The notes under the pieces were generated by a model. It was given only the letters and a program-made list of their open reading frames with translations, was not told the origin of the DNA and searched no databases. The position numbers and the translations under genes are program-made. DNA of 64,000 nt, from assembly GCA_964510065.1 (NCBI GenBank), contig CAZEAC010000010.1, forward strand, positions 2,074 through 66,073. The letters run 5' to 3'. Shown here one piece after another: positions 10,837 through 62,923 of this stretch (its first letter is position 1; each line of letters begins with the position of its first letter). This DNA is from an uncultured Bdellovibrionales bacterium. Its GTDB lineage: Bacteria > Bdellovibrionota_C > UBA2361 > CAIXSY01.

Positions 10837-11002
10837 AATAAGCAGGGGGCGCGCATGTAGGGAGTGGTAACTCTAGGATATGGTTACTTGCTGTCACCCC
10901 TCAAAAAGCTCCCTGAGTGGGCCTTTCCCCTTACACAGCAGCAGTGATGTGCTCACTGCTTCGAGAAGGCCGTATAATTACGATAAAAGAAGAATGGTCC
11001 TC

Positions 11003-11617: not shown

Positions 11618-11865
11618 GCATCCTCCAAAATTATCGATGACGATCGAACTCTTTATAGAGACAGCCTATCTAAGCTCACTGGGCGTTGCAAAATTATAAT
11701 GGTTACAATGTAATGGTGACAATCGAAATGACACTATTGTGGCTTAAATGTCAGAGAATGCCGCAAAAGAATAAAGAGCCTATCAAGTAACAATGTTGCG
11801 TATGTGCAGACCGGCGGTCGCCCGCAATGGAAGAAGTGAAATTAACCCGCGACAGCTTCCTCCGG

Positions 11866-12013
11866 CCCATGCCATTTGGCTCAGAGAGCGCGCGCGAAAG
11901 TGAATTCCCCAATAAAATCAATATTGCGCGGTCCCTGAGGGAATAAGCAAGGAAAACCGCGAGAAGTTGCGTGCTTATTTCGTAGCACGGGAACCGCGCC
12001 GGTGCCGCCGCTG
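11866..12013. repeat. ~150-bp repeat, copy 2 (arrangement A-B); overlaps the 3' end of the downstream metalloprotease gene
   Basis: About 90% identical to copy 1 but circularly permuted (A-B versus B-A), suggesting tandem-unit origin. Confidence 0.85.
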
Positions 12014-13330: not shown

Positions 13331-13368
13331 GGTAGTTCTTGGACTATCGGCCGTCTGGAGAAATAAGA

Positions 13369-14499: not shown

Positions 14500-14543
14500 G
14501 GTGAGGTTAAGCCGTGGACCAGCTGCTTTGTCAGAAGTGTAGC

Positions 14544-16067: not shown

Positions 16068-16089
16068 TCGGTTTGTTTTTAGCGAAATT

Positions 16090-16755
16090 TTAGTCCCCAT
16101 TTTCACGAGCAAGAAAGGCGTGCATTCCGTAACGCCAGTTCTCTTTAAGAGCTCGCGTGGCGCGATCTTTTGCGCCCTTACGAAGTGCACTCAAGATTTC
16201 CTTATGCTGCTGATACGACGCTTGTACTAGACCTTCTTCTGCCATGTAGCGTGCTTCGTAGCGCGCGAGTTTTAGCTGAAGAGATTCAAGCAGGTCGTTC
16301 AAAGTCTCGTTCGTGGCCGACCCAAGCAGAACTGAGTGAAATTGGCGATCGAGTGCTCGCGCTTTCTCCGGATTCTTACGAGCACGTAAAAACTGCTCAT
16401 TGATATCGGTAAGTTTGTCGCTGAGAGTCCGTGCACGTTCGAAACAAAGCTCAAGGCGAAGCGCTTCTAATTCACCGACAATTGGATACAACTCTTCGGC
16501 CTCAGTCCGCGAAAGTGGAGCTACCGAAAATCCGATGTTTGGCTTTGCAAGCACTATGCCGTCTCGCTCAAGTGCAATAAGAGCTTCTCGAAGTGGCGTC
16601 CGGCTTACACGGAGCCGCTTGGCAAGCTGCTCCTCTTTTAGTCTTTTGCCTGATTCAAGCTGTCCGGAAATTACAAGATGAAGCAGCTTGCGACGGAGAA
16701 TTTCTCTGTTGGTACCTTCGCCGCGCGGCTGAGTCTTGCTGATCTTGTCCATGGT
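16090..16755 (-). CDS. GntR-family transcriptional regulator (FadR/FCD-type C-terminal domain)
   Basis: N-terminal wHTH KRLRVSRTPLREALIALERDGIV is typical of GntR. C-terminal helical FCD-like domain. Start at MDKISK (the ORF track extends to 16848). Confidence 0.75.
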   Translation of the reverse strand, partial: TMDKISKTQPRGEGTNREILRRKLLHLVISGQLESGKRLKEEQLAKRLRVSRTPLREALIALERDGIVLAKPNIGFSVAPLSRTEAEELYPIVGELEALRLELCFERARTLSDKLTDINEQFLRARKNPEKARALDRQFHSVLLGSATNETLNDLLESLQLKLARYEARYMAEEGLVQASYQQHKEILSALRKGAKDRATRALKENWRYGMHAFLARENGD

Positions 16756-16972
16756 ATGACTTTTCTGAATGATAATGCAATTTTGCGGCGATGCAAAGTG
16801 AGGACGCAGTGCGGCCACGCCGCAACAATAATATCGAAAGGGCTCCATTCCGGCACGCGCGAGGCAGGGCGCGTGCCTGGCCGGCTAAGCCTCGTAGCAT
16901 GGGAGAAGCAATTCGCTTGGCGCGCTTTCAAAAAAGTAAAAAAATATTGCTGTAAGTTTATACCCTATCGCT

Positions 16973-19366: not shown

Positions 19367-19448
19367 GTAGTCGATCTCCGGTATTGATATTTGCAAGGCG
19401 CCATATGTTGGCTCATAGCGCTGTATACTGTTAGCAGGTAATGTATAC

Positions 19449-19633
19449 TAAGGAACCTCTGAAAAACTATGCATTTCGTCTTCGCTGGCCTTTCGGCGAT
19501 CTTTGCGAGAAAACATGCCGGGAAAATACTCGAAATAGCCCTGCTATTCCTGCGTTTTTCCCGGCATGTTTTCTCGCAAATCTCATCCAAAATTCCAGCA
19601 AATCCAAAACGCCTAGTTTTTCAGAGGTTCCCT
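19449..19633. repeat. nested inverted-repeat element: perfect 25-bp inner IR (TTTGCGAGAAAACATGCCGGGAAAA / TTTTCCCGGCATGTTTTCTCGCAAA, 29-nt spacer) inside a 20-bp outer IR (TAAGGAACCTCTGAAAAACT / AGTTTTTCAGAGGTTCCCTA)
   Basis: Read directly. Lies in the divergent intergenic region between the 807-aa secreted protein gene and cpaB. Confidence 0.8.
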
Positions 19634-19922
19634 AAAATACCTTGCCATAAATACCCCCGCGGTCGTTTCTTTGAAGAACTGCCGATCTCTAATGCTTATT
19701 GTATTCTACAGGATATTTGGCTAACCGGTCGCCTTTCAAGATCAGGCGATCTCCTTGTCGCCTACAAAGGTAGGCCGCATCGGTAAACGGAGCCCGTAAA
19801 TCGCGTCAGGGCTCTGTTCCGGTGAGAGTTGCGAGTCCGGAGGATAGTGCTGATAGAACGGCCATTCGTTCATTTCGAACCAAACCCTAGCGCCCTGGTC
19901 TGATAGTAAAAGGAACGGCTCT

Positions 19923-20813
19923 ATGCAGGGGAAATTTCATTCACAGTACAGGCAATATTCAGTACGAAGGACGCGGATTGCCGTGTGTATAGCGACGTCG
20001 CTCTCTCTAATCTTTGGAGTGGCGCTAGTTTTGGTCCTGCTTCCGCTTCGGACGGCTCCCAAGGTGCCGGTAAGCGTGGAGAAAAGCGAAGCAACGGCGT
20101 ATCGCGCAGTTAAGCTCTTTACCGTTGAAAGTGAAATCGGGGCCGGAACAGCGCTTGGCTCGGTTCGTGTTCGCGAGCTTCAATGGCCGGCGAGTGAAGT
20201 TTCGAAGGATGCGGTTCGTAACCTTTCCGACTTAGAAGGTCGCTACGCACGAATTACCCTGGTTCCAGGAAATCCAATTCGCTTGAGCGAGACAACCAAT
20301 GAGCGGCCATTGATTAATCCTTTAGGCTCGCTCATTCCACCCGGGTACAGGGCGATTGCCATCCAGATCGATGATGTGATTCGAGAAGAGAACTTAATTG
20401 GGCCGCAATCAATTGTCGATGTGACGTTAACCTATCGCGAGAGCGACAGGCTCAAAAGTAAGATAATCGTCGAAAATGCTCTTGTGGGCTCGCGAAATGG
20501 AGATATCGAGCCGTATAAAGAGAGTGACTTAAAGACTATCAAGCAGAGCCGGACACTTACCCTGGTAATAAAAACGGAGGATGCGCTTAAAATATCCGTT
20601 GCGCAGCAGCTTGGTAAAATAGGCTTACTTCTCAAAAGTGAAGCCGCTTCACGGGCGAGTCCCGGAGTATTAGAAACTGATGAGTTTAAAGTGTTGAATG
20701 GTGAGGGTGCGGAAGCACCAGGCAAGCTCGCCTGTCAGAGAGGTACCGCGGTAATTGATGGGCGAAAAGTTGTAATTGGTTGCGATGATTCACTGACCGC
20801 GCTACCAAAGTAA
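19923..20813 (+). CDS. cpaB: Flp pilus assembly protein CpaB/RcpC-like
   Basis: N-terminal TM anchor (IAVCIATSLSLIFGVALVLVLL) and a SAF-like region (VRNLSDLEGRYARITLVPGNPI). Size (296 aa) and architecture match CpaB. Confidence 0.6.
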   Translation: MQGKFHSQYRQYSVRRTRIAVCIATSLSLIFGVALVLVLLPLRTAPKVPVSVEKSEATAYRAVKLFTVESEIGAGTALGSVRVRELQWPASEVSKDAVRNLSDLEGRYARITLVPGNPIRLSETTNERPLINPLGSLIPPGYRAIAIQIDDVIREENLIGPQSIVDVTLTYRESDRLKSKIIVENALVGSRNGDIEPYKESDLKTIKQSRTLTLVIKTEDALKISVAQQLGKIGLLLKSEAASRASPGVLETDEFKVLNGEGAEAPGKLACQRGTAVIDGRKVVIGCDDSLTALPK

Positions 20814-21571
20814 GCTTTTTCTCCAATCAGCGCATCAAGTGCGACGAATTCGAATCCGCGAGCACGTAGCTCACGAATAATCTGCGGCAACAACTGAACC
20901 GTCGCGTCGCCGTAATCGTGAAAGAGAAGAATTGCGCCCGGTGCTACCAATCGTAGTATTCGGCGGCGAAGCAACGCAGCATTTCGGATTACTGTGTCAA
21001 AGGAACGAAGGCTCCAGCCGATAGCCAGAAGATTTTGTTGCTCAATTGCTTTGGCCAGTGAAGGGGTGCTTACGCCGTTAGGCGGCCGAAAAAAGCGTGG
21101 CCGCTTCCCAGTAACTTGCATAATCGAGTCCGCGCATCGTTCGAGATCTCGACAAATCTTCGCGGTGCTTTGAATTGCGAAATAATGTGGATGAGCAAAG
21201 CTGTGGTTGCCAACGATGTGCCCCTCGCTGATCATCGTGCGCACAAGCTGCGGGTTCTCTTCGACTCGTCGCCCGATACAGAAAAAAGTCGCGGTAATCT
21301 GTTCGTTACGGAGAATCTCCAGTATTCGTTCGGTGTTTCCGGCAATAGGCCCGTCGTCAAAGGTGATTGCGATCTGTCTGGCCGAGGTTTTTCCGCGGCA
21401 GGTAAGTGGAAAGTAATATTGAAAAGAAACATCGGCCACGCCGAATGATACGAGCGTTACATACCATGCCACCGCGAGGAGAAGGATCCAACCGGCAATC
21501 CAGCCCTGGGCATAGATCACCGCAAGAAGCGCAAAAAAGGTAAAGAAAAGTATGCGTATCCGGAGGTCCAT
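20735..21571 (-). CDS. polysaccharide deacetylase (CE4, NodB-homology domain) with an N-terminal TM segment
   Basis: ITFDDGP...TATFFCIGRRVEENPQLVRTMISEGHIVGNHSFAHP matches CE4 motifs (TFDDG, H-x4-H). Start set at MDLRI (the ORF track extends to 21703). The C-terminal 79 nt overlap cpaB convergently. Confidence 0.75.
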   Translation of the reverse strand: MDLRIRILFFTFFALLAVIYAQGWIAGWILLLAVAWYVTLVSFGVADVSFQYYFPLTCRGKTSARQIAITFDDGPIAGNTERILEILRNEQITATFFCIGRRVEENPQLVRTMISEGHIVGNHSFAHPHYFAIQSTAKICRDLERCADSIMQVTGKRPRFFRPPNGVSTPSLAKAIEQQNLLAIGWSLRSFDTVIRNAALLRRRILRLVAPGAILLFHDYGDATVQLLPQIIRELRARGFEFVALDALIGEKAYFGSAVSESSQPITTFRPSITAVPL

Positions 21572-21647
21572 TGTCATAGGGCGCAGCCAATATATACTCA
21601 CTTTTGAGGCCTGCTCAATACAGAGCGGCAAATTGTCCATCTTGTTT

Positions 21648-24140
21648 ATGTCGTCAACGAGCGCGTCAATTATCCATGGTCGGGCCCGCTTCGAATTCGT
21701 CACCGAAGGCGCGCTGCGTATTGAATGGTCGGCAACCGCGGCTTTCGAAGGAAAAAGAAGTCTATCCGTGGCTGCTCGTAAGGGCTCGAAAATTGAGGTG
21801 AAAAGGAAGGTACGCGGAGACCGAGTTCAGCTCTGCACTCCCGTGTTGTCGGTCGAATATTGTGATGATGGCTCGGCGCTATCAGAGCAGAATCTTAAAG
21901 TCTCATGGCGCCGCGGAGGTATGCATGGGGTTTGGCACCCTGGGCTTGAAGATAACGCCAATCTTCGCGGGACTGCGCGCACGTTAGATGGAATCCATGG
22001 GGGCGAGGTAAAGTTGGGAGCCGGCTTTGTCTCACGAAGTGGTTGGAGTTTTGTCGATGACTCGAAAACACCGCTTTGTGGCGATGATGGATGGGTCGAG
22101 CCACGGCATGAGCAGGGCTATTTAGACTATTATTTATTTACGTTTGGTCTTGAATATCAGACGGCGCTGCGTGAAGCAGCGCTGGTATTCGGTCACCAAC
22201 CACTACCTCCTCGGTATGCGCTCGGCTATTGGTGGAGCCGCTACTGGGCCTATACCGATAAAGAGCTTGAGCAGCTCGTACAGAGCTTTGAGCGTTTTCA
22301 GATCCCGCTTGATGTGTTGGTGGTCGATATGGATTGGCACCTTGAAGGGTGGACTGGCTATACCTGGGATACTCGCTATTTCCCGGATCCGGCGGACTTC
22401 ATCGCCTGGGTTAAGTCAAAAGGGCTTCGATGCACTCTCAATCTTCACCCGGCCAAAGGCGTTGCGGCGCACGAGCAGGCCTTCCCGGCAATGAAGCGAG
22501 CCCTCGGCATTGCAAAGGCATCTACGGCTCCTATCGCTTTTGATTGTACTGACCAGCGTTATATGCGTCAGTACTTTTCCCAGTTACACCATCCGCTGGA
22601 GAAGCTCGGTGTCGATTTTTGGTGGATTGATTGGCAGCAGGGGAAGGAGTCAAAAATTCCTGGGCTTGATCCTTTGGCCTGGCTTAATCGAGTGCACTTC
22701 GAAGATAACGAGAAACAGCATCCGCGTGAGCGTGGACTTATCTTAAGTCGCTTCGGTGGCCTTGGCGCGGGACGTTATCCGATCGGATTTTCCGGTGATA
22801 CGAACTCGGATTGGGAGTCGTTACGCTATCAGCCTTATTTTACCGCGAATTCTGCCAATGCATTGTATGGGTACTGGAGCCACGATATTGGAGGGCATCA
22901 TAGTGAGCAGATGAATCCGGAGCTATTTCTTCGATGGATGCAGTATGGCTGCTACTCGCCGATACTTAGAACCCATACCTCAAAACACCCTTGCGCCGAA
23001 CGGCGCGCCTGGGCCTATCCAGCTCCGTTTGCTGATATGATTATCGCGGCGATTCGCCGCCGCTATGAGTTAGTTCCCTATGTGTATACCGAGAACCGGC
23101 GCTCATTCGACAGCGCAGTCTCGCTTTGTCATCCGCTCTATTATCATTTTGCTAAACACGCCGATGCGTACGAATGTCCTGAGCAGTATTTCTTCGGGAA
23201 AAGTATGATAGTGGCTCCAATAACTGCGCCGGCGGACCCAAGTAGTGAAACGGCTTCAAAAAAAATATGGATACCTCCTGGAGAATGGTTTGAGGAGTCA
23301 CATGGCATACTCAACAAAGGACCGCGCTGGATCGTCGCGAACTATCTGCACGATGAAGTGCCTATCTTTTTTCGAAGTGACTGCATAATTCCCAGCCAGT
23401 TCGCTCCGCAAAGGCTTGCTCGGAAAAGTTATCGCGCCCTTGTCCTCACAATACCCCCCGGAAAGAGCGGCGAATATGATCTGTATGAAGATGATGGGAT
23501 AAGCAAGGAGTATTTGAAGGGAAGTTCGGTTTTGCTGCCGCTTCGCTATTCATGGCGAGGCAATACGCTCGTGATACGTATCGGTCCCGCGATTGGCCGA
23601 TATCCTGGATATCAGGCGAAAAAAGAGCTTACTCTCAGAATCCCTGCAATAAGTCCTCCCACAAGCGTGCGCCATAAGTCACGTAAGCTTGCCTGGTCGC
23701 ACCGCGAAAGAGCTGGCTTTTGGAGTTATGATGGAGACATGGTGAGCACGGTAGTGTTGCTTGGTGTGATTAATGTTCGAAAGCTCAATAAAGTCGAAAT
23801 CGTCTATGCCAAGAAGCGCCGGGTAGAGGGTCTTAAAGGGGTATTGAACAAGCTCAAGCTCATGCACCGTCATGCAAACGCTGCGCTCGATTTTAAGATA
23901 CTACATCCAGAGGAGCGACTTAGCGCCGAACTTGCGCAGACGGGGAACAGGATCTCGCGTGATCCTAAAAGCTTTGATCGTGAGATTCGAAACATGAAAA
24001 GTACCATGACAAAACTTCCAAAAGTTTTTGTAGAGATGCTCGAGAAGCTTGAAAATGAGGAACGGAGGGCGAGCCTTCGAAAAGCAGTCGAGATAGTATC
24101 GCAACTCAATCAGTTGTTATCCGCTCGCTCCAGGAAGTAG
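21648..24140 (+). CDS. glycoside hydrolase family 31 (alpha-glucosidase/alpha-xylosidase-like)
   Basis: DVLVVDMDWH, FWWIDWQQG and GFSGDTNSDWESL resemble the conserved GH31 catalytic blocks (WIDMNE / HWSGDN..W). Start placed at MSSTS (the ORF track gives 21552). Confidence 0.65.
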   Translation: MSSTSASIIHGRARFEFVTEGALRIEWSATAAFEGKRSLSVAARKGSKIEVKRKVRGDRVQLCTPVLSVEYCDDGSALSEQNLKVSWRRGGMHGVWHPGLEDNANLRGTARTLDGIHGGEVKLGAGFVSRSGWSFVDDSKTPLCGDDGWVEPRHEQGYLDYYLFTFGLEYQTALREAALVFGHQPLPPRYALGYWWSRYWAYTDKELEQLVQSFERFQIPLDVLVVDMDWHLEGWTGYTWDTRYFPDPADFIAWVKSKGLRCTLNLHPAKGVAAHEQAFPAMKRALGIAKASTAPIAFDCTDQRYMRQYFSQLHHPLEKLGVDFWWIDWQQGKESKIPGLDPLAWLNRVHFEDNEKQHPRERGLILSRFGGLGAGRYPIGFSGDTNSDWESLRYQPYFTANSANALYGYWSHDIGGHHSEQMNPELFLRWMQYGCYSPILRTHTSKHPCAERRAWAYPAPFADMIIAAIRRRYELVPYVYTENRRSFDSAVSLCHPLYYHFAKHADAYECPEQYFFGKSMIVAPITAPADPSSETASKKIWIPPGEWFEESHGILNKGPRWIVANYLHDEVPIFFRSDCIIPSQFAPQRLARKSYRALVLTIPPGKSGEYDLYEDDGISKEYLKGSSVLLPLRYSWRGNTLVIRIGPAIGRYPGYQAKKELTLRIPAISPPTSVRHKSRKLAWSHRERAGFWSYDGDMVSTVVLLGVINVRKLNKVEIVYAKKRRVEGLKGVLNKLKLMHRHANAALDFKILHPEERLSAELAQTGNRISRDPKSFDREIRNMKSTMTKLPKVFVEMLEKLENEERRASLRKAVEIVSQLNQLLSARSRK

Positions 24141-24461
24141 AAGGGTCGGTGTCGGGCTCGCTTTGTTAATTCTCTTCTGCCGTTCGAGAGTCATTCTACA
24201 TTGTTTTCCCAGCAGATCGGTCTTGCAGTTCTCCTCGATCATCCCACAGCGACGTTTCATGGCTTCTTCGATTCTTTTTTTTAGCTGATCCTGCGATCCT
24301 TGCTTATGTTTTGCTTTGGAGATAATTGGGGCTTGCATTACGGCACTTTCGCACCGTTTTTTCGCCTCAGCCACATCGAGCATGGTAATGTCTTCGGCGT
24401 GGAGCGAGATAACGTTTAGACAGAGAAAGACAGGTACGATAATTGCTGCTTTCATCGACAT
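24117..24461 (-). CDS. small secreted Cys-containing hypothetical protein, probably co-transcribed with the TadG-like gene
   Basis: Signal peptide MSMKAAIIVPVFLCLNVISLHA. Lies 2 bp downstream of the 24464-26605 gene. Confidence 0.45.
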   Translation of the reverse strand: MSMKAAIIVPVFLCLNVISLHAEDITMLDVAEAKKRCESAVMQAPIISKAKHKQGSQDQLKKRIEEAMKRRCGMIEENCKTDLLGKQCRMTLERQKRINKASPTPTLLLPGASG

Positions 24462-24463
24462 AG

Positions 24464-26605
24464 CTATTCGACAAGGGTAACAACCTTGTCGCCCTCAGTT
24501 TTTGTGCGTACGATCAGATCAAAGGGTCGCTGCGGTGTGAGTCGGCCGCGCACGACATCGCAGCTTGCAGGCTGAGTGCCGCCCTCAGAGAGCTCAAAAT
24601 TATATGGGGGAATATAGGAAGGCAAGGTAAGCGGCGGATCCCAATCAGGCTCTCCGTCTGCGTCGCAATCGTTAGCGACATTTATATCACGAGTTAAATT
24701 GCTAGTTGAGGGGAACTCTGCCCATGAGCCGTATCGCTGCCGTGCTCTGCCAGTTTCAATTGAGTAATCATATATTGTAGTGCGGATAAACCCGGCAATC
24801 TTCCACCCGGCGGCATCAGCAGGATCGATATGCCGTTCGCTCGATCTGCCGTTTACTCCGCGGCAGCCATATTTGTCGTTGTCGCCCTCACGAACAATAA
24901 TCGGAACATTTACTACCCAGGCTCGCGCTCCTAACATGCTTACTAGCGGGTAGGTGGTTGTGCGTGGGTTATAGTTATTAAGAAGCGCCGACGAGCAGGC
25001 GCCGTTATTGGTTCGACTTGAAAATGGGGTGTCTGTTCCCATATAGGGTGGAAGAAATGATGGATCGAGATAGGTTGAATAATCTTTGAAAGGGCGGTAC
25101 TTCTTCACATCACCTGTGTCATAGTCCCAAATTGCGCACATAAAATCACCCCTTCTATCCCAAGGCGCAAACATTTGACATATTCCATTGTCGACCCAGG
25201 TAATAAATTCATCTTGTAGCTCGACATCGCTTGCGAAATTATCAATCCGGCCGAACATATTCTTAACGTCATTCCCAACAAGTGGCCTGTAAAAATCTAT
25301 CGGATAGAAATTGGCAGGGTCAATAAAGAGCCAGGGCTTGATATACGCCCACTCAAGTGGCGTGGTCCTTAGCTGTGGATTATCCTTTGGAATGATCACT
25401 GAGTGGAAGCTATTTGCTCCGGAGAGCCTATCGCGCATACGATTTCGAGCATTGTCCGAAGTCAGGCCAGCAGGAAGTATGCTGAACCAATCACCTATAT
25501 CAGCCTGAATGCCTCCGCTTGGGCAGACATCGGTACCCACAAGCGCATTTCGTACCTGTGCTTCGTTCACCGTATCAGTTTGCGAACCTACCGGGAGCCC
25601 GACTACTCCGAAATGGTCAAAGTGCGTGTAGTTGGTCCTATCAAGGCGGAAGGTATTCCAAAATGGGGTCTCGTTCGTTGTCGAATGATACGCGAGCTCT
25701 TGCTCAAGGGCGTACTTACTCTGTAATCCAGTCAGTGTAGTATCGGAAGCGATTGCGTCAAAGGCGGCGTCGCTCATTGTCTTTGGATTTACCGGATCTG
25801 CGTAACCCACCGGCGTCCAAGAATCTGGAAGCGGCAAGCTAAGGTCAGAGTCGCCATGATACGCCTCGACCGGAAAAGCTGGGTAGGCGCAGTTTGTGCC
25901 ATCATCATTACAATAGATTTTTACCGGCGCAAAAAGCCTATCGACGTCGTCGACGTCATTGATATTAAGCTCGCCATTGTTATCGAGAAGAGCACAGAGC
26001 GGAATTGCAAAGGGCGCTGCGCACGTTTGCCCAATCCTATCAGCGATGGCTGTGGCGGTAACTTCGACTTCAAAAAGTGCATTAATAAATTTGGGAAGGC
26101 CTGGCTGCACTATCGGTCTGGTTAACTTCACCCGAACCGCGTTGGCAGCGACATACGGCGGAAGCACGACACTGGTCGTACCTTCTAAAGATCTAAAACC
26201 CGCTTCTGCGCTTGAATCAGGAAGCCATCGACCGCGCTCAAGGCTGACCGCGAGATTATCGGAGCCGCCGGGCCCGGCGTTCCAACTAACTTTAGTATCG
26301 TCACTGAGGTCGTTTCGGATAGCGCCGAGTTGGATAACTTTACTTGCACCCGGATAGCTTAAAACTTTCTGTCCCTCGATTGCGTCAAGCGCGGCGATAC
26401 GGGACTTTTCCCAGCAGTCGAGTGAGGAGCATAATGTTGCCGCCGCTGCGGTCGCCGCCAAGTCTGCGCTGCCCTGTAGTTGGCTACGCGCGAGCGCGAC
26501 CGATCCAACAAGCACGACGGTTCCAAGGAGGAACATAAGCGCAACGGCAATGAATATCGCCATTACTATGGCGACGCCGCGCTCGTGAGTAGATGAGTAC
26601 CGCAC
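24464..26605 (-). CDS. TadG-like (Tad_N-domain) large pilus-associated protein (713 aa)
   Basis: N-terminus HERGVAIVMAIFIAVALMFLLGTVVL matches the TadE/TadG N-terminal signature (ERG..A.V.FAL). Large Gly/Asn/Asp/Pro-rich extracellular region. Confidence 0.55.
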   Translation of the reverse strand: MRYSSTHERGVAIVMAIFIAVALMFLLGTVVLVGSVALARSQLQGSADLAATAAAATLCSSLDCWEKSRIAALDAIEGQKVLSYPGASKVIQLGAIRNDLSDDTKVSWNAGPGGSDNLAVSLERGRWLPDSSAEAGFRSLEGTTSVVLPPYVAANAVRVKLTRPIVQPGLPKFINALFEVEVTATAIADRIGQTCAAPFAIPLCALLDNNGELNINDVDDVDRLFAPVKIYCNDDGTNCAYPAFPVEAYHGDSDLSLPLPDSWTPVGYADPVNPKTMSDAAFDAIASDTTLTGLQSKYALEQELAYHSTTNETPFWNTFRLDRTNYTHFDHFGVVGLPVGSQTDTVNEAQVRNALVGTDVCPSGGIQADIGDWFSILPAGLTSDNARNRMRDRLSGANSFHSVIIPKDNPQLRTTPLEWAYIKPWLFIDPANFYPIDFYRPLVGNDVKNMFGRIDNFASDVELQDEFITWVDNGICQMFAPWDRRGDFMCAIWDYDTGDVKKYRPFKDYSTYLDPSFLPPYMGTDTPFSSRTNNGACSSALLNNYNPRTTTYPLVSMLGARAWVVNVPIIVREGDNDKYGCRGVNGRSSERHIDPADAAGWKIAGFIRTTIYDYSIETGRARQRYGSWAEFPSTSNLTRDINVANDCDADGEPDWDPPLTLPSYIPPYNFELSEGGTQPASCDVVRGRLTPQRPFDLIVRTKTEGDKVVTLVE

Positions 26606-26920
26606 CTCTTTGCCTCCAATGCAAACCGGTATTCTTACCAGCCCGGAGCAGATCTCCGCATTAGAAAAGAGCTCCGAGCGGTATCTACCCGACGTAAGCT
26701 CTTTCCTTAATCTCTAATCGGCAGTACTCCCGAAAAATTCCAATAAAATTCCCTACTTCCTATTTTAAAGCGTCTTGGGCGGCCATTCAACCTCTTCAGA
26801 ACGACGTATTTAACCTGAAGCATGCCTCGCTCTGCATAGGATGTGTGTAATAGGAAGCTAAGTGGGTAGCCACTTCGCTAGTGCCGGTATTCTGCGCCGG
26901 TACGACACGGATGGGGATAT

Positions 26921-27424
26921 ATGCGCTCTTTTCACGTAGTTAGAGGTGGGTCGAGTATTGGTGGGATACTCTTTGAGTGTGCCGCGATTCTTCCAGTAAT
27001 AATGACCTTTGGTGCGGTAATACTTGAATTCGGCGCAAACCTTAATGATCGCGCAAAACTAACCAAAGAAGCATCCGAGGTAGCACGACTAGTCAGCCGT
27101 AGCGCAGCACTTTCAAGTAACGAAGCTTTCTGCAACGGTGATGCACAACACCCGGGGGCGCTGAACGTGGCTCAATCCCGGCTGGTGGCCGTGGGATTGG
27201 TCGATGCGCATAATCCACAAAACTCTCCGTTCAGATCGCATATTCAGGCATCGTTCTCGGACCTTTCTAAACGTTGGAGAATTTCAGTAAAAATTGAACG
27301 TAATTTAGAAAGTGGACTTAGCTTGGTTCGAAAGTTTACTGGATTGGCGTCGGCCGAAGTGATTTCGCTTGCGAAACCGGAATATGGACCGCCAAATCCG
27401 ATTGAGACTTGGGAATGTAGTTAA
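26921..27424 (+). CDS. TadE/TadF-like pseudopilin
   Basis: RGGSSIGGILFECAAILPVIMTFGAVILEF is a TadE-like N-terminal motif. Confidence 0.5.
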   Translation: MRSFHVVRGGSSIGGILFECAAILPVIMTFGAVILEFGANLNDRAKLTKEASEVARLVSRSAALSSNEAFCNGDAQHPGALNVAQSRLVAVGLVDAHNPQNSPFRSHIQASFSDLSKRWRISVKIERNLESGLSLVRKFTGLASAEVISLAKPEYGPPNPIETWECS

Positions 27425-27437
27425 TTCGGGAAGGGTT

Positions 27438-27893
27438 ATGAAAAGAGAAAATATACACAGGAACGCTGAACGCGGTGCTACGCTAGTCGAAGCGACGGTG
27501 GGTGTTCCGCTGCTGATGATAATTACATTTCTCTTTGTTGCCTTTGGGCACTACGCCTATGTATCGATAGCGATTACCGATGCGATTGATGTCGCGGCTC
27601 GCGAGGCGTTGTCTTCTTTTTCACGCGGGTTGTCGAACTCGCAGATCGAATCAAATACAAACCAGGCGCTGCTTACTCGATTGAGCAAGTTCGGAATTGC
27701 GGGACACGGCGCAGTCGATCCCATTGTGCATACAAGCGAACTTTCTACAGTGCAAGTAAGCACCAATGGTGAAACCGAATTGCGGATTGAAGCCGAGGTG
27801 TACGCGCATGTATTCTTGAAGCCGATGAGAATACTCGAGACCGATAGACGAGGCCTTGGCAAGATTACGCGGACTATCTCAGTGCCGCTGTAG
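27438..27893 (+). CDS. TadE/TadF-like pseudopilin
   Basis: ERGATLVEATVGVPLLMIITFLFVAF is a TadE-like motif. Start at MKRENIH (the ORF track gives 27369). Confidence 0.55.
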   Translation: MKRENIHRNAERGATLVEATVGVPLLMIITFLFVAFGHYAYVSIAITDAIDVAAREALSSFSRGLSNSQIESNTNQALLTRLSKFGIAGHGAVDPIVHTSELSTVQVSTNGETELRIEAEVYAHVFLKPMRILETDRRGLGKITRTISVPL

Positions 27894-57020: not shown

Positions 57021-58379
57021 TTAAACCGCACCATCGGGCGGTAGTAATGGCACTGTCTCCCAGCCGCTTAATTCCCAAGAAAAGCCGATCTTCATTCCAG
57101 AGAACGCGCGCTGGCCGTCCAGGAAGAAAAGAAGGCTCAACATTAGCAAAACAAGAAATAATGCCCCTTGGAACGAAGCCCCGTAGCCGTGCCACGCGCC
57201 TGCGAGCCGAGGCATGAGAAAGAAGTAAAGCGAGACGAACCAATATGGCGAGTAAAGAAAAAATTCACGCCTGTGCCCAAAAAAAAGAATAAGGAGAAAA
57301 AAAACTGCAAAAATTGTAAGGAAAACGTAGGATTGGTAGATTCGCCGTACACTGAGACTCGGCCGCGCAATCAAACTACTCGCTAATAACCACGCCCAAA
57401 GCCATAATGTTCCGCCCTGCACAATTTCAGTGAAAGTCTGGCCGTAAAGCGGTGCCTGCAGGAGTGTACCTATGGTTCGATTTTTGTAGTCGAGCGGGTT
57501 CAAAACTGGGCCGAAAATGCTTCCGATAAAGACCGCGTATATTCGATCGAGAAACTCAGTGAGCCCGTGTGGCCAATACCAGTATTGATGATAAAATCGA
57601 ATGCCTGATTTTATGGAGGTTTGGTGGAAGAAGATCGGAATTTCTGGCCAAAGAAATGTCTGCAAATAGCCAAGTACTACAAGAAGTAGTGCGAGCAGTG
57701 AGGAAAAAAAAGCCAGCGCGCGAATACTAGCGACAAAGCTCTGACCAGAGCTTAGGCGAGAAAGTATAAAAAGAAATAGCGTAAGTGGAATTGAAAAGAT
57801 TAAAACGCCGCAGGCAGGTAGTGCTGCCAATGCCTGAAGCCACCAGCGGTTTTTCTTATCGAAAAGACTGAAGCAAAATAGTACGAGAAATGCCATGGCG
57901 TAGAGGTGGGTTTCGGGAACTGCTGAGAAGAAAATGATCGGGGGGGAGGCAAGCAGCGGTAGAGTAAACGCGAGATTTGTGCTCCAGCCGACGTTTTGCA
58001 GGGAGAGAAGATAGCAAAAAGCCGCCACGATCAGAGCGGCAGGGAACGCCAGAATAATTGAAAATGAGAGTTTCTCATTTCCCGTGAGCAGAGACATTAG
58101 CTTAAAGGGCGGGTGAACCATCAGCGGAAAAAGTGGGTGAGCTCGGATCCGATCGTAGGTTTCTTCGATTGAGCCACGAAAGGGTAGAGCCCGAATCTGA
58201 GCTTCGACCTTCCCTGTGTCGGCACCGATAAGCCAGTCATGCAGTGGTGACCAGGGTAGCTCCGATAGTCGAAAGCTGCTTGCAAGCGCTACCAGAAATG
58301 ACGCAAGGAAGACTAATAAAAGAGGCAGCCCGCGCTTAATAGTAAAATCCCGCGCCTCCGCCTTCACCTCCGACACCAT
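57021..58379 (-). CDS. polytopic membrane protein (more than 10 TM helices), hypothetical; last gene of the flp-like operon
   Basis: Hydrophobicity. 44-bp overlap with the upstream TadE-like gene. Confidence 0.45.
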   Translation of the reverse strand: MVSEVKAEARDFTIKRGLPLLLVFLASFLVALASSFRLSELPWSPLHDWLIGADTGKVEAQIRALPFRGSIEETYDRIRAHPLFPLMVHPPFKLMSLLTGNEKLSFSIILAFPAALIVAAFCYLLSLQNVGWSTNLAFTLPLLASPPIIFFSAVPETHLYAMAFLVLFCFSLFDKKNRWWLQALAALPACGVLIFSIPLTLFLFILSRLSSGQSFVASIRALAFFSSLLALLLVVLGYLQTFLWPEIPIFFHQTSIKSGIRFYHQYWYWPHGLTEFLDRIYAVFIGSIFGPVLNPLDYKNRTIGTLLQAPLYGQTFTEIVQGGTLWLWAWLLASSLIARPSLSVRRIYQSYVFLTIFAVFFLLILFFGHRREFFLYSPYWFVSLYFFLMPRLAGAWHGYGASFQGALFLVLLMLSLLFFLDGQRAFSGMKIGFSWELSGWETVPLLPPDGAV

Positions 58380-59079
58380 ACGCGGCCTGTGAGAGACGGG
58401 TGGACATTACCCCGCAAAGGTCATAATGCCCGGGAAGGTCAGGCATAATCACTACCCCCCAGGCGCGCCGGTCAGGCTGGGTACAATCAATTTTTACCAG
58501 CTGTTTGAACTTGGTCTTACAGCCTCCTACGTCGCGCTTAAATAAGGCGATAAGATCATCACAGCCTCTCGACGTAAGTATGTCGGTTCCATTACGCATG
58601 GCGTATGCGCCTGTTCCTTCGGCAAGCGCAAACAGTGGCGGCTCCGGCGGATTAAGATTCCACTGAGTACGATCGACCGGGGCATTAAGTCCTCCGGGAC
58701 AAAGATTTGAAATATCGTCAATCTGTACAAGAAATGAACAGACCCCTACTTTCAGGTAGGTATTATACGAGACTCGATTGCTTAACTTAAAGAGCTCCCT
58801 TTCGGCCAAAGTAGGCGAGAGTAGAATCCGTCCGCCTCTGTTCGGATCAAAGTCAAAAACTATCGGCTCAGGCCCAATTGCTGCGACGAGATCCATTCCC
58901 TGTTCAAGATCGATGGCCAAAATCCGCGAGCGCAATTTCGGGTAGATAAATAGATAGCCGAGCAAAAGAATTACTAAGAATCCTGAAAGGATGAGCGCAG
59001 CCTCAATAAGTGCAACTCCTCCAGGCTTTACTGAGCTACTACCGCGAAAGCGCGTTTTTCTTATTATCCTCATCAGCAT
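58336..59079 (-). CDS. TadE/TadF-like pseudopilin (247 aa)
   Basis: N-terminal PGGVALIEAALILSGFLVILLLG. Confidence 0.5.
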   Translation of the reverse strand: MLMRIIRKTRFRGSSSVKPGGVALIEAALILSGFLVILLLGYLFIYPKLRSRILAIDLEQGMDLVAAIGPEPIVFDFDPNRGGRILLSPTLAERELFKLSNRVSYNTYLKVGVCSFLVQIDDISNLCPGGLNAPVDRTQWNLNPPEPPLFALAEGTGAYAMRNGTDILTSRGCDDLIALFKRDVGGCKTKFKQLVKIDCTQPDRRAWGVVIMPDLPGHYDLCGVMSTRLSQAAYGVGGEGGGAGFYY

Positions 59080-59183
59080 AGCTATTAGCTACTTTTACCA
59101 CTTCAATCAATGGTTGCCCACCCATCGTATAAAGGGCAAGATACTTTGCTAGTAAGAATTAGAGCCGATGAGCGAAGCCCGGT

Positions 59184-60047
59184 TTAGAGCCGAGCTTCAA
59201 GATAGTTCGGCACTTCGACATTGACCTGTTTCTTCGATCGGACCACAACAGTAAAGGGCTCGCCGCTCGTATCAATTCCCAGCGCCGACAATAACTTTAC
59301 AATAGGCTGAATAAATTCGGGCGAAACAGCATAGATACACTCGAGTGCAAGGCTATTAGTTGGGATGAATTCCTTATAATCATCATGAACTTTATTGAAG
59401 AGTGCGCGCGCACCACCTCTCGCCGGCTTAAATTTACAGGTAAGACAGCCTGCTCCATCGGCCCTATTCGCGTCGGTTCCTAAAGGGTCACAGGGATAGC
59501 GCACCTGTCGGCCTAGGCTCTCGTAGATAAGGTTATTGGCATATCCTAGGCCATACATATAAATCGCCGGAAACTCTTTGGGGGTTGAGCCGCTCTCGAC
59601 TAATAGCGAATCGTAACTTTTTAGCACAGACTTATAAGAGAGCTCGGCCACTTCCACCGGTTCGCTTGGAGTGGCTTCTTTCCAGTTTCTATTGACTAGT
59701 CGGATTGGCGCGCCTGCGGCAAGGATGGACTTGGCATAGGACCAGTCATTCGTACCACTTAAAACTGATACAGTCCCGGCAGTTGCATAAAGCGGGTCAC
59801 GATCCGGTGAGTCGGTGCTCACTCCGCCAAGTGTTGGGACTACCGCCGAGCCGGCGCGGCGTGGATCGCCACGGGTAATTGCAAGTCTTACTGCTTGACC
59901 TGTTGCCCAGTGCACCGTAAGTGTTGCGTGCAGAACTGTGGCAAGCCAGAGTATAGCGAAAAAGAAAGTCATCACTATCGGAAGGGCGAAGGCCGCTTCA
60001 ATTAAGACAGCACCTTTAGAAATATCGCCGTGTATGTACCGCTTCAT
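59184..60047 (-). CDS. TadE/TadF-like pseudopilin (287 aa)
   Basis: N-terminal KGAVLIEAAFALPIVMTFFFAIL. Confidence 0.55.
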   Translation of the reverse strand: MKRYIHGDISKGAVLIEAAFALPIVMTFFFAILWLATVLHATLTVHWATGQAVRLAITRGDPRRAGSAVVPTLGGVSTDSPDRDPLYATAGTVSVLSGTNDWSYAKSILAAGAPIRLVNRNWKEATPSEPVEVAELSYKSVLKSYDSLLVESGSTPKEFPAIYMYGLGYANNLIYESLGRQVRYPCDPLGTDANRADGAGCLTCKFKPARGGARALFNKVHDDYKEFIPTNSLALECIYAVSPEFIQPIVKLLSALGIDTSGEPFTVVVRSKKQVNVEVPNYLEARL

Positions 60048-60311
60048 CTAAATACACTCCTCGGGCGAAAGAAAGCCCCGCCCGTCAGTACACGGACCCA
60101 TTGGACCGAGCGGTGTTCCAGTATACAGTGGCGTGGCCCCCTGTGGTTGCGAGGCAGCGTCTAAAGACTGGCTCCCCCGTCTTTCAAATGCCCCGCCTAA
60201 GAAATTACTTACCCCCATAAGCGCAACGAGGAGAATTGAGAGACCAAGTACATACTCGACAAGGGTTGCCCCGGTCGCGCATTGCTTATGGTTCCGCCAG
60301 GATCTGGTCAT
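60048..60311 (-). CDS. flp: Flp-family prepilin
   Basis: ATGATLVEYVLGLSILLVALMG matches the Flp motif G/(A/T)T.IEY.L..(A/S)LIA..., with a short charged leader. The C-terminal extension is longer than a typical Flp. Confidence 0.6.
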   Translation of the reverse strand: MTRSWRNHKQCATGATLVEYVLGLSILLVALMGVSNFLGGAFERRGSQSLDAASQPQGATPLYTGTPLGPMGPCTDGRGFLSPEECI

Positions 60312-62923
60312 AGCTTCGGCTCAAATGAGAACAATCGCTCCTCGATAAGTGATTTTACAAAGCTTGAGACGGTGACCCTTGTTGCGCACACGCCACTCGC
60401 GGGAAGACCATCAAGATGTCCAATGAAGTCTTTATAGAACTGATTTGAATCTCCACTACCACCACAGGAAGCCCCGGCCCCAGTCATAGTATCTGCCCAT
60501 GGGCTAATTACATAGAGACGGTTTCGGTAGGGTGCTCTAGGGCTCACCGAACTTGCCAGAGGATCTATTCCAAAGAGACAGCGGACTCGATCTACTGCAT
60601 CGCCATCGCAGTTAGCGGTTCCGGCATCAAGCGCGTCTGTCGGCGTCATCGGAATATAGATGACAGTTACCGGAAAAATACCCTGAGTCAGCTCCGGGTT
60701 GTTTATCCGAAGATCGCCGACATAGGCCAGTAAATTATGTTGATGAGGGGGGCGGTGAAGAATGATTACAGTCGGGGCATTTCTATCGAGCCGGTATAAA
60801 TTCGTTACGGTCTGGTTGCCACCGAAAGGGAATTCGGGCTCGTTGGCGTAGGTAGCAGGCCCGGGAGGTTCCGCCGGCCAAACCGTGAGCGGGAATAGCC
60901 CTGGCGGTGCGTAAAAGAAGGGATGTGGCTGGTTTGGTGCGCCAAAGTTATTTGGCAATCGACGATGATTAGCGAGAAATGAGCCGAAGTCGGGAAGCAG
61001 ATCGTTGTCCCCGCCGGGCTTTTGGCAAGGCCAGCCGGGAAAAGCTTCATTCAGAGGATGATAGCCTACGGGACAGGATTGGATCGATCCAATTATCGCC
61101 GCGACCTCCGGAGCGGTAAGGCCTCGGGAGGTATTATTGGTTTCGTCGTTAAGATCGGTGCTGTGTGGATCCACATTGCTGTTTGGCCAGGGTCTTGGCC
61201 CCTGCTCCCAGGGCTGACCGGGAGCGAAGGGTATATTTCTAAGCTTCGGGTTATAGGCAAACCCTGCCGGGTCAAACGGATCGTTACCAGGCAATATGAA
61301 TTGTGGCCTATCGATCCCATTTCGGTCATCTATGCCATTGTCATCTGGATCGAACCCGGAGTAGAGCTGATAGCAGATCCTTAGCTGCTCGGCGATAAAC
61401 TGCTGATGCTGGTCGCTTAGATTGTAGAGGTTCGCGTTCCCGTTTCCATCTCGCCAGGGGTTTATCGGACCATCCTTATTCTGGACACTCCACGCGTCGA
61501 AGTGTCCATCGATACTGCCAGTGACCGGGTAATCCTCTCGTGAACTATTGTAGTATACGTAAGGCAGCTGATACTGCGGCGCGGCAAGATCATCTCCTAG
61601 CAGTGAATCAACAATCTTTACAGGTTTATTTTGTCCCCAGGTCGAGCTGTAATAATCAGTGTTCGGTGATCTTCGGTTTGCCGGGTTTACTACGGCGAGA
61701 TCGGTTGAGTACCTGGTAAGAGAAGATCGCATAAGATACTCTAGCAATCCGCTTACAATCAGGTTTCTTACAAATATAGTAGGATTAAGGCAGGCCGCCA
61801 TGTGCGACCAAAGCGGGTCTTCACTGCCCCATCCTGAAATATGCATATAATCAAAGTAGCCACCGAGTTCATCACCTGCATCCGCAGGTGGAGTTCCATT
61901 ATCTACCGCATAGCCGCCGGGAGAGATGTCAAATTCAGTTGCTGGCTTTTTGTGATTGCCGGGATCGCCTATAAAGTGAGTGCTAAAAAGAGAACCATAT
62001 TCTCCAAGGGTAGTTAAGCGGAGGAGGCTATATTTATCTAAATACTTCTTGGTCTCTACTCCAAGAGCTCCCTCATTTGGTTCCCACCAAGGGAAATTTG
62101 CTGGGCCGGGAATTGGCGTCGTCATCTGAGGTGCCACCAAGATCTTAATTCCCATCGGCCCCTGCGGGGCTCCACCAGCGGTAAGCGGAATCTCGCCACG
62201 AGGTCTGCGCCAGAAAGCTGATTTAGCCGAGATAATTCTTGGCCCGAAAAAAATCGTTGAGTACTCCGCAACCGCTTCGCAGGCAACTGCCGCGCCGACT
62301 AGTGGGTTAGGAAAATTAGGAGGAGTTTCGGGGCAGGCGCCACCACCTGCTGTTTGCGGGGATACACAGCCGGTTGAGACCAAGTTGCCGCTCCAAAAGT
62401 TGTTAGGAAAGCCACCGCTCGGTGCGTTGAAATCAGTGGTGTCGTAAACATACTCGCATGTTCCAACAGCTCCAACATCACAGCTGGTAATGTTACATAT
62501 CCCACTCGCGCAGCCGCTGAGCAGTCCCGCTGCATTTGCTGTGAAATTGGCCTCAAGGTATCCCGGATCAAATACTGGGGCATACACCCGCGCATGGGTG
62601 ATGGTAAGATTTCGCTGACGCGGCGCAGCCGCCCAGGCATTTACCTGGTCGCGAAAGCCAACGACAACTTCGCGCTGGAAAAAAGGATTGTAAGAGACTG
62701 TCCTACAACGTTCATCAAGATCCCTTCGAAAGCCGGTTTCAGCGTGTTTGGTAAGGAGTAGATCAACTCCGAGCGCGCTTATCACTATGCTGAAAATCGC
62801 GCCCATTACCGCGATAAGCGGAATCACGACACCGGCGTCAGAGCGGAGCCGCTTAGAAAATCGTGGCAATTTATTGGGAATGCCCATATTCCTTAGATGC
62901 AGTTTTGAAAGCACAATGCGCAA
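60308..62923 (-). CDS. giant TadG-like / pilus-tip-like secreted protein (871 aa), first gene of the flp-like operon
   Basis: N-terminal RSDAGVVIPLIAVMGAIFSIVISALGVD (TadE/G-like hydrophobic N-terminus). Asn/Asp/Pro/Gly-rich body with many DPxxD/NG motifs. ATGA coupling to flp. Confidence 0.5.
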   Translation of the reverse strand: MRIVLSKLHLRNMGIPNKLPRFSKRLRSDAGVVIPLIAVMGAIFSIVISALGVDLLLTKHAETGFRRDLDERCRTVSYNPFFQREVVVGFRDQVNAWAAAPRQRNLTITHARVYAPVFDPGYLEANFTANAAGLLSGCASGICNITSCDVGAVGTCEYVYDTTDFNAPSGGFPNNFWSGNLVSTGCVSPQTAGGGACPETPPNFPNPLVGAAVACEAVAEYSTIFFGPRIISAKSAFWRRPRGEIPLTAGGAPQGPMGIKILVAPQMTTPIPGPANFPWWEPNEGALGVETKKYLDKYSLLRLTTLGEYGSLFSTHFIGDPGNHKKPATEFDISPGGYAVDNGTPPADAGDELGGYFDYMHISGWGSEDPLWSHMAACLNPTIFVRNLIVSGLLEYLMRSSLTRYSTDLAVVNPANRRSPNTDYYSSTWGQNKPVKIVDSLLGDDLAAPQYQLPYVYYNSSREDYPVTGSIDGHFDAWSVQNKDGPINPWRDGNGNANLYNLSDQHQQFIAEQLRICYQLYSGFDPDDNGIDDRNGIDRPQFILPGNDPFDPAGFAYNPKLRNIPFAPGQPWEQGPRPWPNSNVDPHSTDLNDETNNTSRGLTAPEVAAIIGSIQSCPVGYHPLNEAFPGWPCQKPGGDNDLLPDFGSFLANHRRLPNNFGAPNQPHPFFYAPPGLFPLTVWPAEPPGPATYANEPEFPFGGNQTVTNLYRLDRNAPTVIILHRPPHQHNLLAYVGDLRINNPELTQGIFPVTVIYIPMTPTDALDAGTANCDGDAVDRVRCLFGIDPLASSVSPRAPYRNRLYVISPWADTMTGAGASCGGSGDSNQFYKDFIGHLDGLPASGVCATRVTVSSFVKSLIEERLFSFEPKL

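Follow-up and report, generated by a model that had tools for sequence, protein, structure and literature searches.

Tad pili and their dispersed tip genes

In the canonical tad loci of Aggregatibacter actinomycetemcomitans, Pseudomonas aeruginosa and Caulobacter (tad/cpa), the tadE-tadF-tadG trio lies inside a locus that also contains flp, tadV, rcpCAB and tadZABCD. The Tad-like Kil pilus of Myxococcus xanthus has several sets of kilLMN genes per genome, each a 'Tip' cluster of TadE-, TadF- and TadG-like genes, and three of the four sets are found in clusters of their own outside kil cluster II (PMC12075869). The tip protein, KilN/TadG, has a C-terminal domain that lacks a homologue in the PDB and contains many Cys residues; the tip3 cluster also carries a small Flp, KilO, and tip1-4 are restricted to Myxococcota (PMC12075869). 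The tad genes of Bdellovibrio bacteriovorus HD100 occupy at least six loci, one of which holds a lone tadG that codes for a tip protein and is needed for prey invasion; most core tad genes are located in one primary locus, and the place of rcpC is not explicit (bioRxiv 10.64898/2026.07.08.737194). A further report describes RcpC as a dodecameric periplasmic alignment complex (PMC12307814).

The neighbourhood at 19923-27893

The region analysed here is a fairly ordinary instance of the dispersed Tad layout already described in predatory bacteria. An earlier note had placed cpaB, a 713-aa TadG-like gene and two TadE-like genes, with embedded GH31 and CE4 genes, at positions 19923-27893 of the 64-kb window (the whole stretch of DNA that was analysed), and all of these genes were found where it had placed them. 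Pfam and NCBIfam HMMs confirm the identity of CpaB/RcpC, CE4, GH31, the TadG-like protein and one of the TadE-like proteins. In a database look-up, all window proteins were singletons among 15 billion sequences, and the lineage of the window is very poorly sampled. The strand order of the genes is +, -, +, -, -, +, +; because the strands alternate, the gene set is a neighbourhood and not an operon, with at least four transcription units. Within it, the two TadE-like proteins and the TadG-like protein probably constitute a minor-pilin module that stands by itself and would supply the 'tip', or priming complex, of a Tad/Flp (type IVc) pilus. The core machine of that pilus, with its ATPase, platform, secretin and peptidase, is assumed to be encoded outside the window, and the CE4 and GH31 enzymes probably do not belong to the system.

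The TadG-like protein and its TadE-like partners

The TadG-like large minor pilin (713 aa) is encoded at 24464..26605 on the minus strand. A Pfam check that had been proposed for this protein matched both Tad (PF13400, 26.9 bits vs. GA 22.3) and Tad_C (PF09977, 24.2 bits vs. GA 22.1), each by a small margin of 2-5 bits over the threshold, and a vWA-type domain was absent. A single-chain model (pTM 0.77) predicts an N-terminal helix (residues 2-43), a pilin-like beta domain and a large C-terminal domain, the last being Cys-rich and without a solved structural homologue in model comparison. The protein has no Glu at +5, a feature that is expected of the tip-most subunit by analogy with GspK.

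Homologues of the TadG-like protein were recovered by an exhaustive HMMER search, a word-indexed search having returned the query alone. They form a family with about 160 cluster representatives at 50% identity, most of them 550-730 aa long, conserved over the full length and with invariant Cys; Tad was matched in 31 of 40 members and Tad_C in 14 of 40. The nearest homologues occur in Bdellovibrionota/Bdellovibrionales MAGs, at an identity of only about 27-31%. Loci of this family were located with a 12-sequence alignment, a 40-sequence one being too diverse, and a metagenome scan with the same aim gave one short locus only.

The first TadE/TadF-like pseudopilin (167 aa; 26921..27424, plus strand) scored 15.4 bits against Pfam TadE (PF07811), below the GA of 22.9, and has a G/GILFE motif followed by a hydrophobic helix. 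By phmmer it weakly matched the first TadE-like gene in the modules at loci L005 and L010. The second (151 aa; 27438..27893, plus strand), whose start was confirmed by exact look-up, reached 29.2 bits against the same GA, carries a G/ATLVEA motif and matched TadE-like genes in eight related loci by phmmer. Both TadE-like proteins show the features of a pseudopilin (a short leader, a Gly site, Glu at +5 and a hydrophobic helix), with cleavage predicted from these motifs, and the G/xxxxE pattern recurs in 12 of 12 TadE-like neighbours of TadG homologues in relatives.

The TadG-like gene and the TadE pair are separated by a divergent intergenic region of 315 bp (26606..26920), which includes a promoter-like site at 26790-26762(-) that is a consensus match only; promoter and terminator scans scored scarcely above shuffled sequences and offer hints only. 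In the window TadG runs opposite to the two TadE-like genes, whereas the trio is co-directional in all relatives. An invertible segment around TadG was considered and rejected, flanking inverted repeats not having been found. On the other side of the TadG-like gene, the source annotation contains a 114-aa ORF (24117..24461, minus strand) with a signal-peptide-like N-terminus and five Cys. It is probably co-transcribed with the TadG-like gene, since only a few nucleotides separate its start from the TadG-like stop. No family match was found for it, and it is lineage-specific.

Conservation of the module in relatives

Across 11 related loci, representing about six independent contexts in Bdellovibrionota-type MAGs, the conserved unit is TadE-TadE-TadG only. 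A TadG homologue accompanied by two same-strand TadE-like genes was present in every locus with enough flank (L003, L004, L005, L006, L010, L011, L015 and L016), and the adjacency to tadE/tadF, which together with Tad and Tad_C marks the window protein as a TadG-like large minor pilin, holds both in the window and in every such relative. The modules are bordered by housekeeping genes, namely IDO, M23 peptidase, ImuB/DnaE2, PfkB, MetRS, NfeD/Band7 and a cyclase. A phmmer search of about 130 kb across the 11 loci found no homologues of cpaB, CE4, GH31 or the 114-aa ORF. In the relatives TadE-TadE-TadG was kept, and GH31, CE4 and cpaB were never alongside. One MAG, Co_bin.267, contains two paralogous modules, whose TadG proteins are 35% identical.

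In the mechanism that we propose, the three proteins would enter the inner membrane by their N-terminal hydrophobic helices, and a prepilin peptidase would cut both TadE-like proteins after the Gly of the G/xxxxE motif. The three helices could then come together as a bundle, and on this complex the platform and ATPase of a remote machine would polymerize the Flp pilin; the complex might in this way reach the pilus tip, where the variable, Cys-rich C-terminal domain of TadG would be displayed for target binding. The stand-alone CpaB/RcpC may contribute the periplasmic alignment-ring subunit, either to this machine or to a related one.

The closest parallels are the kilLMN sets, with which the trio shares three minor pilins and a Cys-rich large subunit without a solved homologue, a likeness drawn from descriptions. 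The predicted architecture of the TadG-like protein (N-terminal helix, beta domain and large domain without a solved homologue) agrees with the description of the KilN/TadG tip (PMC12075869). The window differs in that its TadG is divergently oriented, and both a heterotrimer and a role in predation are putative for the window trio. With HD100 the window shares the scattering of tad genes, as well as nearest TadG homologues from Bdellovibrionota/Bdellovibrionales; however, its cpaB is alone, and its TadG keeps two TadE partners whereas the HD100 tadG is lone. The canonical loci are alike in having TadE/Tad/Tad_C, a G/xxxxE leader on both small proteins and three adjoining genes. Unlike in those loci, there are no such core genes beside the trio within 64 kb, save for the lone cpaB and a remote Flp-like ORF, and the TadG-like protein is without the vWA-type domain.

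CpaB, the missing machinery and a second module

The cpaB/rcpC gene (19923..20813, plus strand), encoding a Tad pilus periplasmic alignment-ring subunit, stands alone. Its product has a single N-terminal membrane anchor (TM, residues 21-39) and scored 109.2 bits against the NCBIfam equivalog TIGR03177 (cutoff 71) and 56.1 bits against Pfam RcpC (4e-15; cutoff 28.8), with Pfam SAF at 19.8 bits marginally below its cutoff of 21. The anchor, the SAF-like and RcpC domains and a score above the equivalog cutoff identify it as CpaB. A word-level search returned two homologues only, at 31% and 27% identity. The gene lies 3.6 kb from the tip module, and its tie to the module is positional, because this proximity is not kept in relatives.

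The earlier note had reported that flp, ATPase, platform and secretin are missing from the cluster, and motif and Pfam scans agree. Pfam analysis of essentially all ORFs of at least 140 aa in the 64-kb window gave no match to T2SSE/CpaF, T2SSF/TadBC, a secretin or an A24 peptidase (Peptidase_A24); a TadV-like small multi-TM ORF was also absent from the window, its sole small multi-TM ORF being unlike TadV, and in 19-28 kb no Flp-like ORF emerged from a motif scan of all six frames. The window thus does not contain a complete Tad/Flp (type IVc) pilus locus. An Flp-like gene does occur 32 kb away (60048-60311, minus strand), encoding an 87-aa pilin recognized by a G/ATLVEY motif only, without a Pfam Flp match. 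It belongs to a second, non-homologous Tad minor-pilin module (57021..62923, minus strand) that further comprises an 871-aa anchored protein, two TadE-like genes (59184-60047 and 58336-59079, both minus strand) and a 452-aa protein with seven hydrophobic (putative TM) segments. Paralogy of the 713-aa and 871-aa anchored proteins was rejected, as no similarity between them could be detected. The second module matches the pattern of Myxococcus, with its dispersed kilLMN 'Tip' clusters, and of Bdellovibrio, whose tad loci are scattered; like tip3, with KilO, it includes a small Flp-like pilin. The suggestion of a split Tad system with machinery encoded elsewhere fits these observations, given the isolation of the trio in relatives, the second module in the window and the dispersed tad and tip genes documented in Bdellovibrio and Myxococcus.

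An alternative is that the region is a decayed and rearranged remnant of a once complete tad locus, with pseudopilin genes that are out of use. The absence of core genes from 64 kb, the inversion of TadG compared with relatives, the unrelated genes that separate cpaB from the module and the marginal HMM scores could all be read in this way. Yet every ORF is intact and of full length, the processing motifs and the family-invariant Cys and Gly columns are retained, and a good Shine-Dalgarno sequence precedes TadG. Moreover, isolation is no sign of decay because the isolated module is the norm in relatives, and we regard this explanation as improbable. It is equally doubtful that the filament primed by the trio is not an Flp/Tad pilus but another member of the type IV group, for example a type IVa pilus or a pseudopilus resembling that of type II secretion. 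Its Pfam matches are to the Tad-specific TadE, Tad and Tad_C, its leader is of the Tad type, G/xxxxE(F/A/Y), and not GFTLxE, a bona fide CpaB is 3.6 kb off, and the same window encodes the Flp-like pilin with G/ATLVEY.

The CE4 and GH31 genes

PelA, encoded in a pel operon, combines the exopolysaccharide hydrolase and deacetylase activities in one secreted protein. The proximity of a glycoside hydrolase and a CE4-type deacetylase in the window is the only likeness to it; here the two enzymes have separate genes on opposite strands, the GH31 lacks an export signal, and Pfam scans of the window detected no pel-like genes. The hydrolase domain of PelA is not known to be a GH31.

The CE4 (NodB-type) polysaccharide/peptidoglycan deacetylase gene (20735..21640, minus strand; Polysacc_deac_1, 8e-34) overlaps cpaB by 79 nt at its 3' end. 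Its start at 21640, given in the source annotation, was confirmed by exact look-up; an alternative ATG at 21577 would leave a 70-nt spacer to GH31. The best NCBIfam matches are PdaB, PdaA, PgdA and NodB, every one below cutoff. The GH31 gene (21648..24140, plus strand), with its start confirmed by an exact sequence match, encodes an alpha-glucosidase/xylosidase-like enzyme with Glyco_hydro_31_2nd (1e-64), a C-terminal Glyco_hydro_31_3rd domain and DUF5110. The signal-peptide check that had been suggested for the two enzymes gave a divided answer: CE4 has about 40 hydrophobic residues at its N-terminus (segments within residues 5-45), whereas a sequence scan of GH31, N-terminus included, revealed neither a signal peptide nor a hydrophobic segment, and GH31 is probably cytoplasmic.

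At least 8000 homologues of GH31 exist, the best being 42-50% identical over the full length, and the three homologue contexts that were sampled are unrelated to Tad and contain no Tad genes. A 707-aa neighbour of one homologue proved not to be TadG-like. Another homologue, at locus L012, adjoins a CE4; a conserved GH31-CE4 pair was nevertheless rejected because that CE4 has no significant similarity to the CE4 of the window. Horizontal insertion of the two genes was likewise rejected, their GC, GC3 and codon usage being indistinguishable from those in the rest of the window. Each is independently transcribed, and both are probably unrelated neighbours of the Tad genes.

The earlier note had also linked the pseudopilins to exopolysaccharide in a PelA-like manner. 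Extended to its full form, this idea holds that pseudopilins, CpaB, CE4 and GH31 form a functional island that remodels exopolysaccharide or (prey) cell-wall glycan at the pilus contact site. The interleaving of the genes within 8 kb, their uniform composition, the best subfamily matches of CE4, which are to peptidoglycan/chitooligosaccharide deacetylases, and the single GH31 homologue that adjoins a CE4 are consistent with it. Neither enzyme, however, accompanies the trio at even one of the 11 related loci, so an exported hydrolase and deacetylase co-occurring with a partner system across relatives are not what was found. The lack of a signal or anchor on GH31, the occurrence of this ubiquitous family in unrelated contexts and the placement of the enzymes on separate, alternating transcription units further leave the PelA-like idea unsupported, and a functional island of this kind is very unlikely.

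Implications

The preferred reading, a free-standing minor-pilin module, makes this region a clear case in which the minor-pilin genes of a Tad system form a three-gene cassette, complete in itself and apart from the pilus motor, and it removes a tempting link between Tad pili and the polysaccharide enzymes GH31 and CE4 as unsupported. The coherent TadG-like family could mark tip cassettes in Bdellovibrionota-type genomes. The boldest extension, that the tip module, the lone CpaB, a membrane-anchored, peptidoglycan-deacetylase-like CE4 and GH31 make up a lineage-specific contact or invasion island coupling a Tad tip to target-surface glycan remodelling, is highly improbable. In a milder and likelier reading, Bdellovibrionota-type bacteria would possess sets of Tad tips that are interchangeable. 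The two cassettes in the window and the two paralogous ones in Co_bin.267 suggest that cells with multiple tips occur outside Myxococcus too, which is useful context for studies of prey recognition by predatory bacteria. If such a repertoire is real, the 'adaptable tip' principle would reach beyond Myxococcota with a new TadG family.

Gene organization of the 19.9-27.9 kb region

The genes listed in the earlier note for this region were confirmed by HMM searches, the first TadE-like gene by motif. The cpaB gene (19923-20813, plus strand) encodes a 296-aa CpaB/RcpC protein scoring 109.2 bits against an NCBIfam equivalog cutoff of 71. It is followed by genes for a CE4 deacetylase (20735-21640, minus strand; Pfam, 8e-34) and an 830-aa GH31 enzyme (21648-24140, plus strand; Pfam, 1e-64). 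The 713-aa TadG-like protein (24464-26605, minus strand) exceeds the Pfam gathering scores for both Tad (26.9 bits against 22.3) and Tad_C (24.2 against 22.1). Across a 315-bp spacer, its gene diverges from two plus-strand TadE-like genes, TadE-like 1 (26921-27424) and TadE-like 2 (27438-27893), and upp, starting at 27980 (plus strand), lies 3' of the latter. TadE-like 2 scores 29.2 bits against the Pfam gathering score of 22.9; TadE-like 1 falls below it with only 15.4 bits, but a hydrophobic helix follows its G/GILFE leader. Hence, the N-terminal signatures previously described as clear held on HMM scoring for the TadG-like protein and TadE-like 2, but only as a motif for TadE-like 1. Because the gene strands alternate, these genes are neighbours in four or more transcription units, not members of one operon.

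Several features of gene spacing were also observed. The cpaB and CE4 genes are convergent, with 3' ends overlapping by 79 nt (20735-20813). The divergent CE4 and GH31 start codons are only 7 nt apart if the annotated CE4 start at 21640 is right; an alternative ATG at 21577 would leave a more usual 70-nt spacer. A 114-aa ORF (24117-24461, minus strand) with a signal-peptide-like N-terminus and five Cys residues shares 24 nt with the 3' end of GH31. No family match, and no counterpart in related loci, was found for this ORF, which is probably co-transcribed with the TadG-like gene. Just upstream of cpaB, the divergent intergenic region holds an imperfect palindrome of about 210 nt (19437-19646), the sole long inverted repeat of the 64 kb, whose 24-nt core is confined to its two arms. 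It folds as a single hairpin (MFE -100.9 kcal/mol; z = -13.7 against shuffles). No Rfam family scored above gathering, the matches being limited to generic miRNA hairpins. The palindrome could be a MITE-like element, an operator or a 5'-UTR structure.

Tad machinery and the second module

Pfam searches of essentially all window ORFs of at least 140 aa detected no CpaF/TadA, TadB/C, secretin or A24 peptidase, and the reported lack of an ATPase, platform and secretin thus holds for the whole 64-kb window. No TadV-like small membrane ORF was found in the window and no Flp-like ORF within 19-28 kb, as the earlier note had stated for flp in the cluster. Within the window, therefore, the module is not a complete tad locus; CpaB, TadE/F and TadG-like proteins are all present, one TadE/F member by motif only.

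A second module of five minus-strand genes occupies 57021-62923. It encodes an N-terminally anchored 871-aa protein without family match, an 87-aa Flp-like ORF (60048-60311) with a textbook Flp-type G/ATLVEY leader, TadE-like proteins of 287 aa (Pfam, 5e-6) and 247 aa (G/VALIEA), and a 452-aa protein with seven hydrophobic, putatively transmembrane segments and no family match. Beyond it lie a divergent response-regulator receiver gene (56532-56951) and a gene for a 938-aa AAA ATPase. Homology of the two modules at the TadG level was rejected, the 713-aa and 871-aa proteins having no detectable similarity. By a rough estimate that assumes a few-Mb genome and a handful of tad loci, three Tad-related loci are unlikely to fall within 43 kb by chance, which suggests a loose Tad neighbourhood; yet none of the relatives (11 loci) has cpaB close to the cassette.

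Elsewhere, the only Rfam family above gathering is a tmRNA gene (49889-50299, plus strand; RF00023, 140 bits). tmRNA genes are common integration sites, and a Fic-domain gene just downstream (50804-51955, minus strand) has the lowest GC (0.447) and GC3 (0.409) among window genes; on both grounds, it may be foreign. Many large ORFs lack a Pfam match, such as those of 1183 aa (3703-7254) and 548 aa (14544-16190). The window's lineage is very poorly sampled. All window proteins looked up were singleton clusters among about 15 billion sequences, and two also occurred in Logan assemblies, one of them CpaB, from a short contig of run SRR16481186.

GH31 and CE4 enzymes

Position alone ties the GH31 and CE4 enzymes to the pilin genes. 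Neither gene departs from the window's typical GC, GC3 or codon usage. The proposed link to exopolysaccharide modification was not borne out: a phmmer search of the window proteins against all ORFs of 11 related loci (about 130 kb) recovered the TadG and TadE-like genes and no cpaB, CE4, GH31 or 114-aa homologue. The GH31 family is very large, with full-length homologues at 42-50% identity whose source names include Armatimonadota, Sedimentisphaerales and Victivallaceae, and no Tad genes surround them in the three contexts examined. A conserved GH31-CE4 pair was also rejected; a CE4 gene adjoins one of the three homologues, without significant similarity to that of the window. The latter is a generic NodB-type enzyme, its nearest models being peptidoglycan and chitooligosaccharide deacetylases with scores far under their cutoffs. 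As to the suggested signal peptides, the N-terminus of GH31 is devoid of any hydrophobic segment, and CE4 begins with about 40 hydrophobic residues. The likeness to PelA is not supported; the pair lacks the features expected of a PelA-like module.

A conserved TadE-TadE-TadG cassette

A word-level search with the TadG-like protein returned nothing besides itself; exhaustive HMMER across 1.84 billion cluster representatives yielded 158 relatives at E<=1e-3 (88 at E<=1e-10). Most measure 550-730 aa, and their alignments describe a single family in which conservation extends from the N-terminal helix through to the C-terminus, with several invariant Cys columns and the motifs ERGRW, AANAVRV, APFAIPxCAL, DHFGVVGLP, VPVIA, IIGFV..D.DIG and CN.VR.R. 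Among 40 members, Pfam Tad matched 31, Tad_C 14 and vWA, a domain the earlier note had raised, none.

Related loci came from Bdellovibrionota or Bdellovibrionales MAGs and one unclassified MAG (L003-L006) and from assembled read sets (L009-L011, L014-L016). Wherever the contig reaches far enough, two TadE-like genes directly adjoin the TadG homologue on the same strand, as TadE-TadE-TadG or TadG-TadE-TadE, and all 12 TadE-like neighbours have G/xxxxE(F/A/L/G) leaders. Flanking genes are unrelated, including PfkB, MetRS, NfeD/Band7, a cyclase and a beta-helix protein. Since the phmmer search recovered the TadG and TadE-like genes without cpaB, CE4, GH31 or the 114-aa ORF, the conserved unit is a free-standing three-gene cassette. 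Three related genomes (L003, L004 and L016, about 5500-17300) share the conserved layout IDO, DUF4261, M23 peptidase (minus strand), TadE-TadE-TadG, ImuB-like and DnaE2, the cassette adjoining an error-prone polymerase operon. In two others (L014, 2434-2715; L015, 3122-3391), a further small ORF, which matches the Tad N-terminal domain of Pfam, runs across the TadG homologue's stop; that lineage may have in it a fourth minor-pilin-like gene.

In an AlphaFold model of the TadG-like protein, built on a 40-sequence alignment (pTM 0.77, mean pLDDT 71), a long N-terminal helix spanning residues 2-43 precedes a beta-sheet domain over the Tad_C region; the C-terminal domain is large and broken by low-confidence loops. 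Neither Foldseek of the model against the PDB (E<=0.001) nor a profile search of PDB sequences gave a match. The predicted fold could be that of a large minor pilin bearing a novel distal domain. Family members conserve a Gly but lack Glu at +5, which, by analogy with GspK-type tip pseudopilins, fits a tip-most position.

A putative tip cassette

In M. xanthus, KilL/M/N are homologous to TadE/F/G, and predictions join them in a spearhead-shaped heterotrimer, the Tip of the Kil Tad pilus; KilN is large, with a disulfide-rich distal domain lacking PDB homologues, and analogous tips are predicted in Bdellovibrio (PMC12075869). In B. bacteriovorus, tad genes occupy six or more separate loci, one of them a lone tadG, and prey invasion is impaired when tadG is depleted (bioRxiv 10.64898/2026.07.08.737194). 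RcpC/CpaB makes up a ring for alignment in the periplasm (PMC12307814). Based on these studies, we infer that the trio would be a tip or priming cassette of a Tad pilus whose motor would be encoded elsewhere, and the lone cpaB a component of a presumed core machine; leader cleavage, complex formation and tip location are likewise predicted. The split Tad system suggested earlier is thus supported, both by recurrence of the free-standing trio in relatives and by published dispersal of tad genes. In gene content and isolation, the module behaves like the Kil Tip clusters. Its unusual features are minor: the TadG-like gene is inverted relative to its TadE partners, whereas the relatives' trios are co-directional; the small Cys-rich ORF starts within a few nt of the TadG-like stop; cpaB is solitary; and the lineage is very poorly sampled, all its proteins being singletons.

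Myxococcus xanthus has four paralogous kilLMN clusters, three of them separate from kil cluster II and one containing a small Flp (PMC12075869). The MAG Co_bin.267 carries two paralogous TadE-TadE-TadG cassettes (L003, 9752-11737; L005, 9956-11698), whose TadG proteins share 35% identity across about 580 residues, which suggests that genomes of its lineage possess several tip cassettes.
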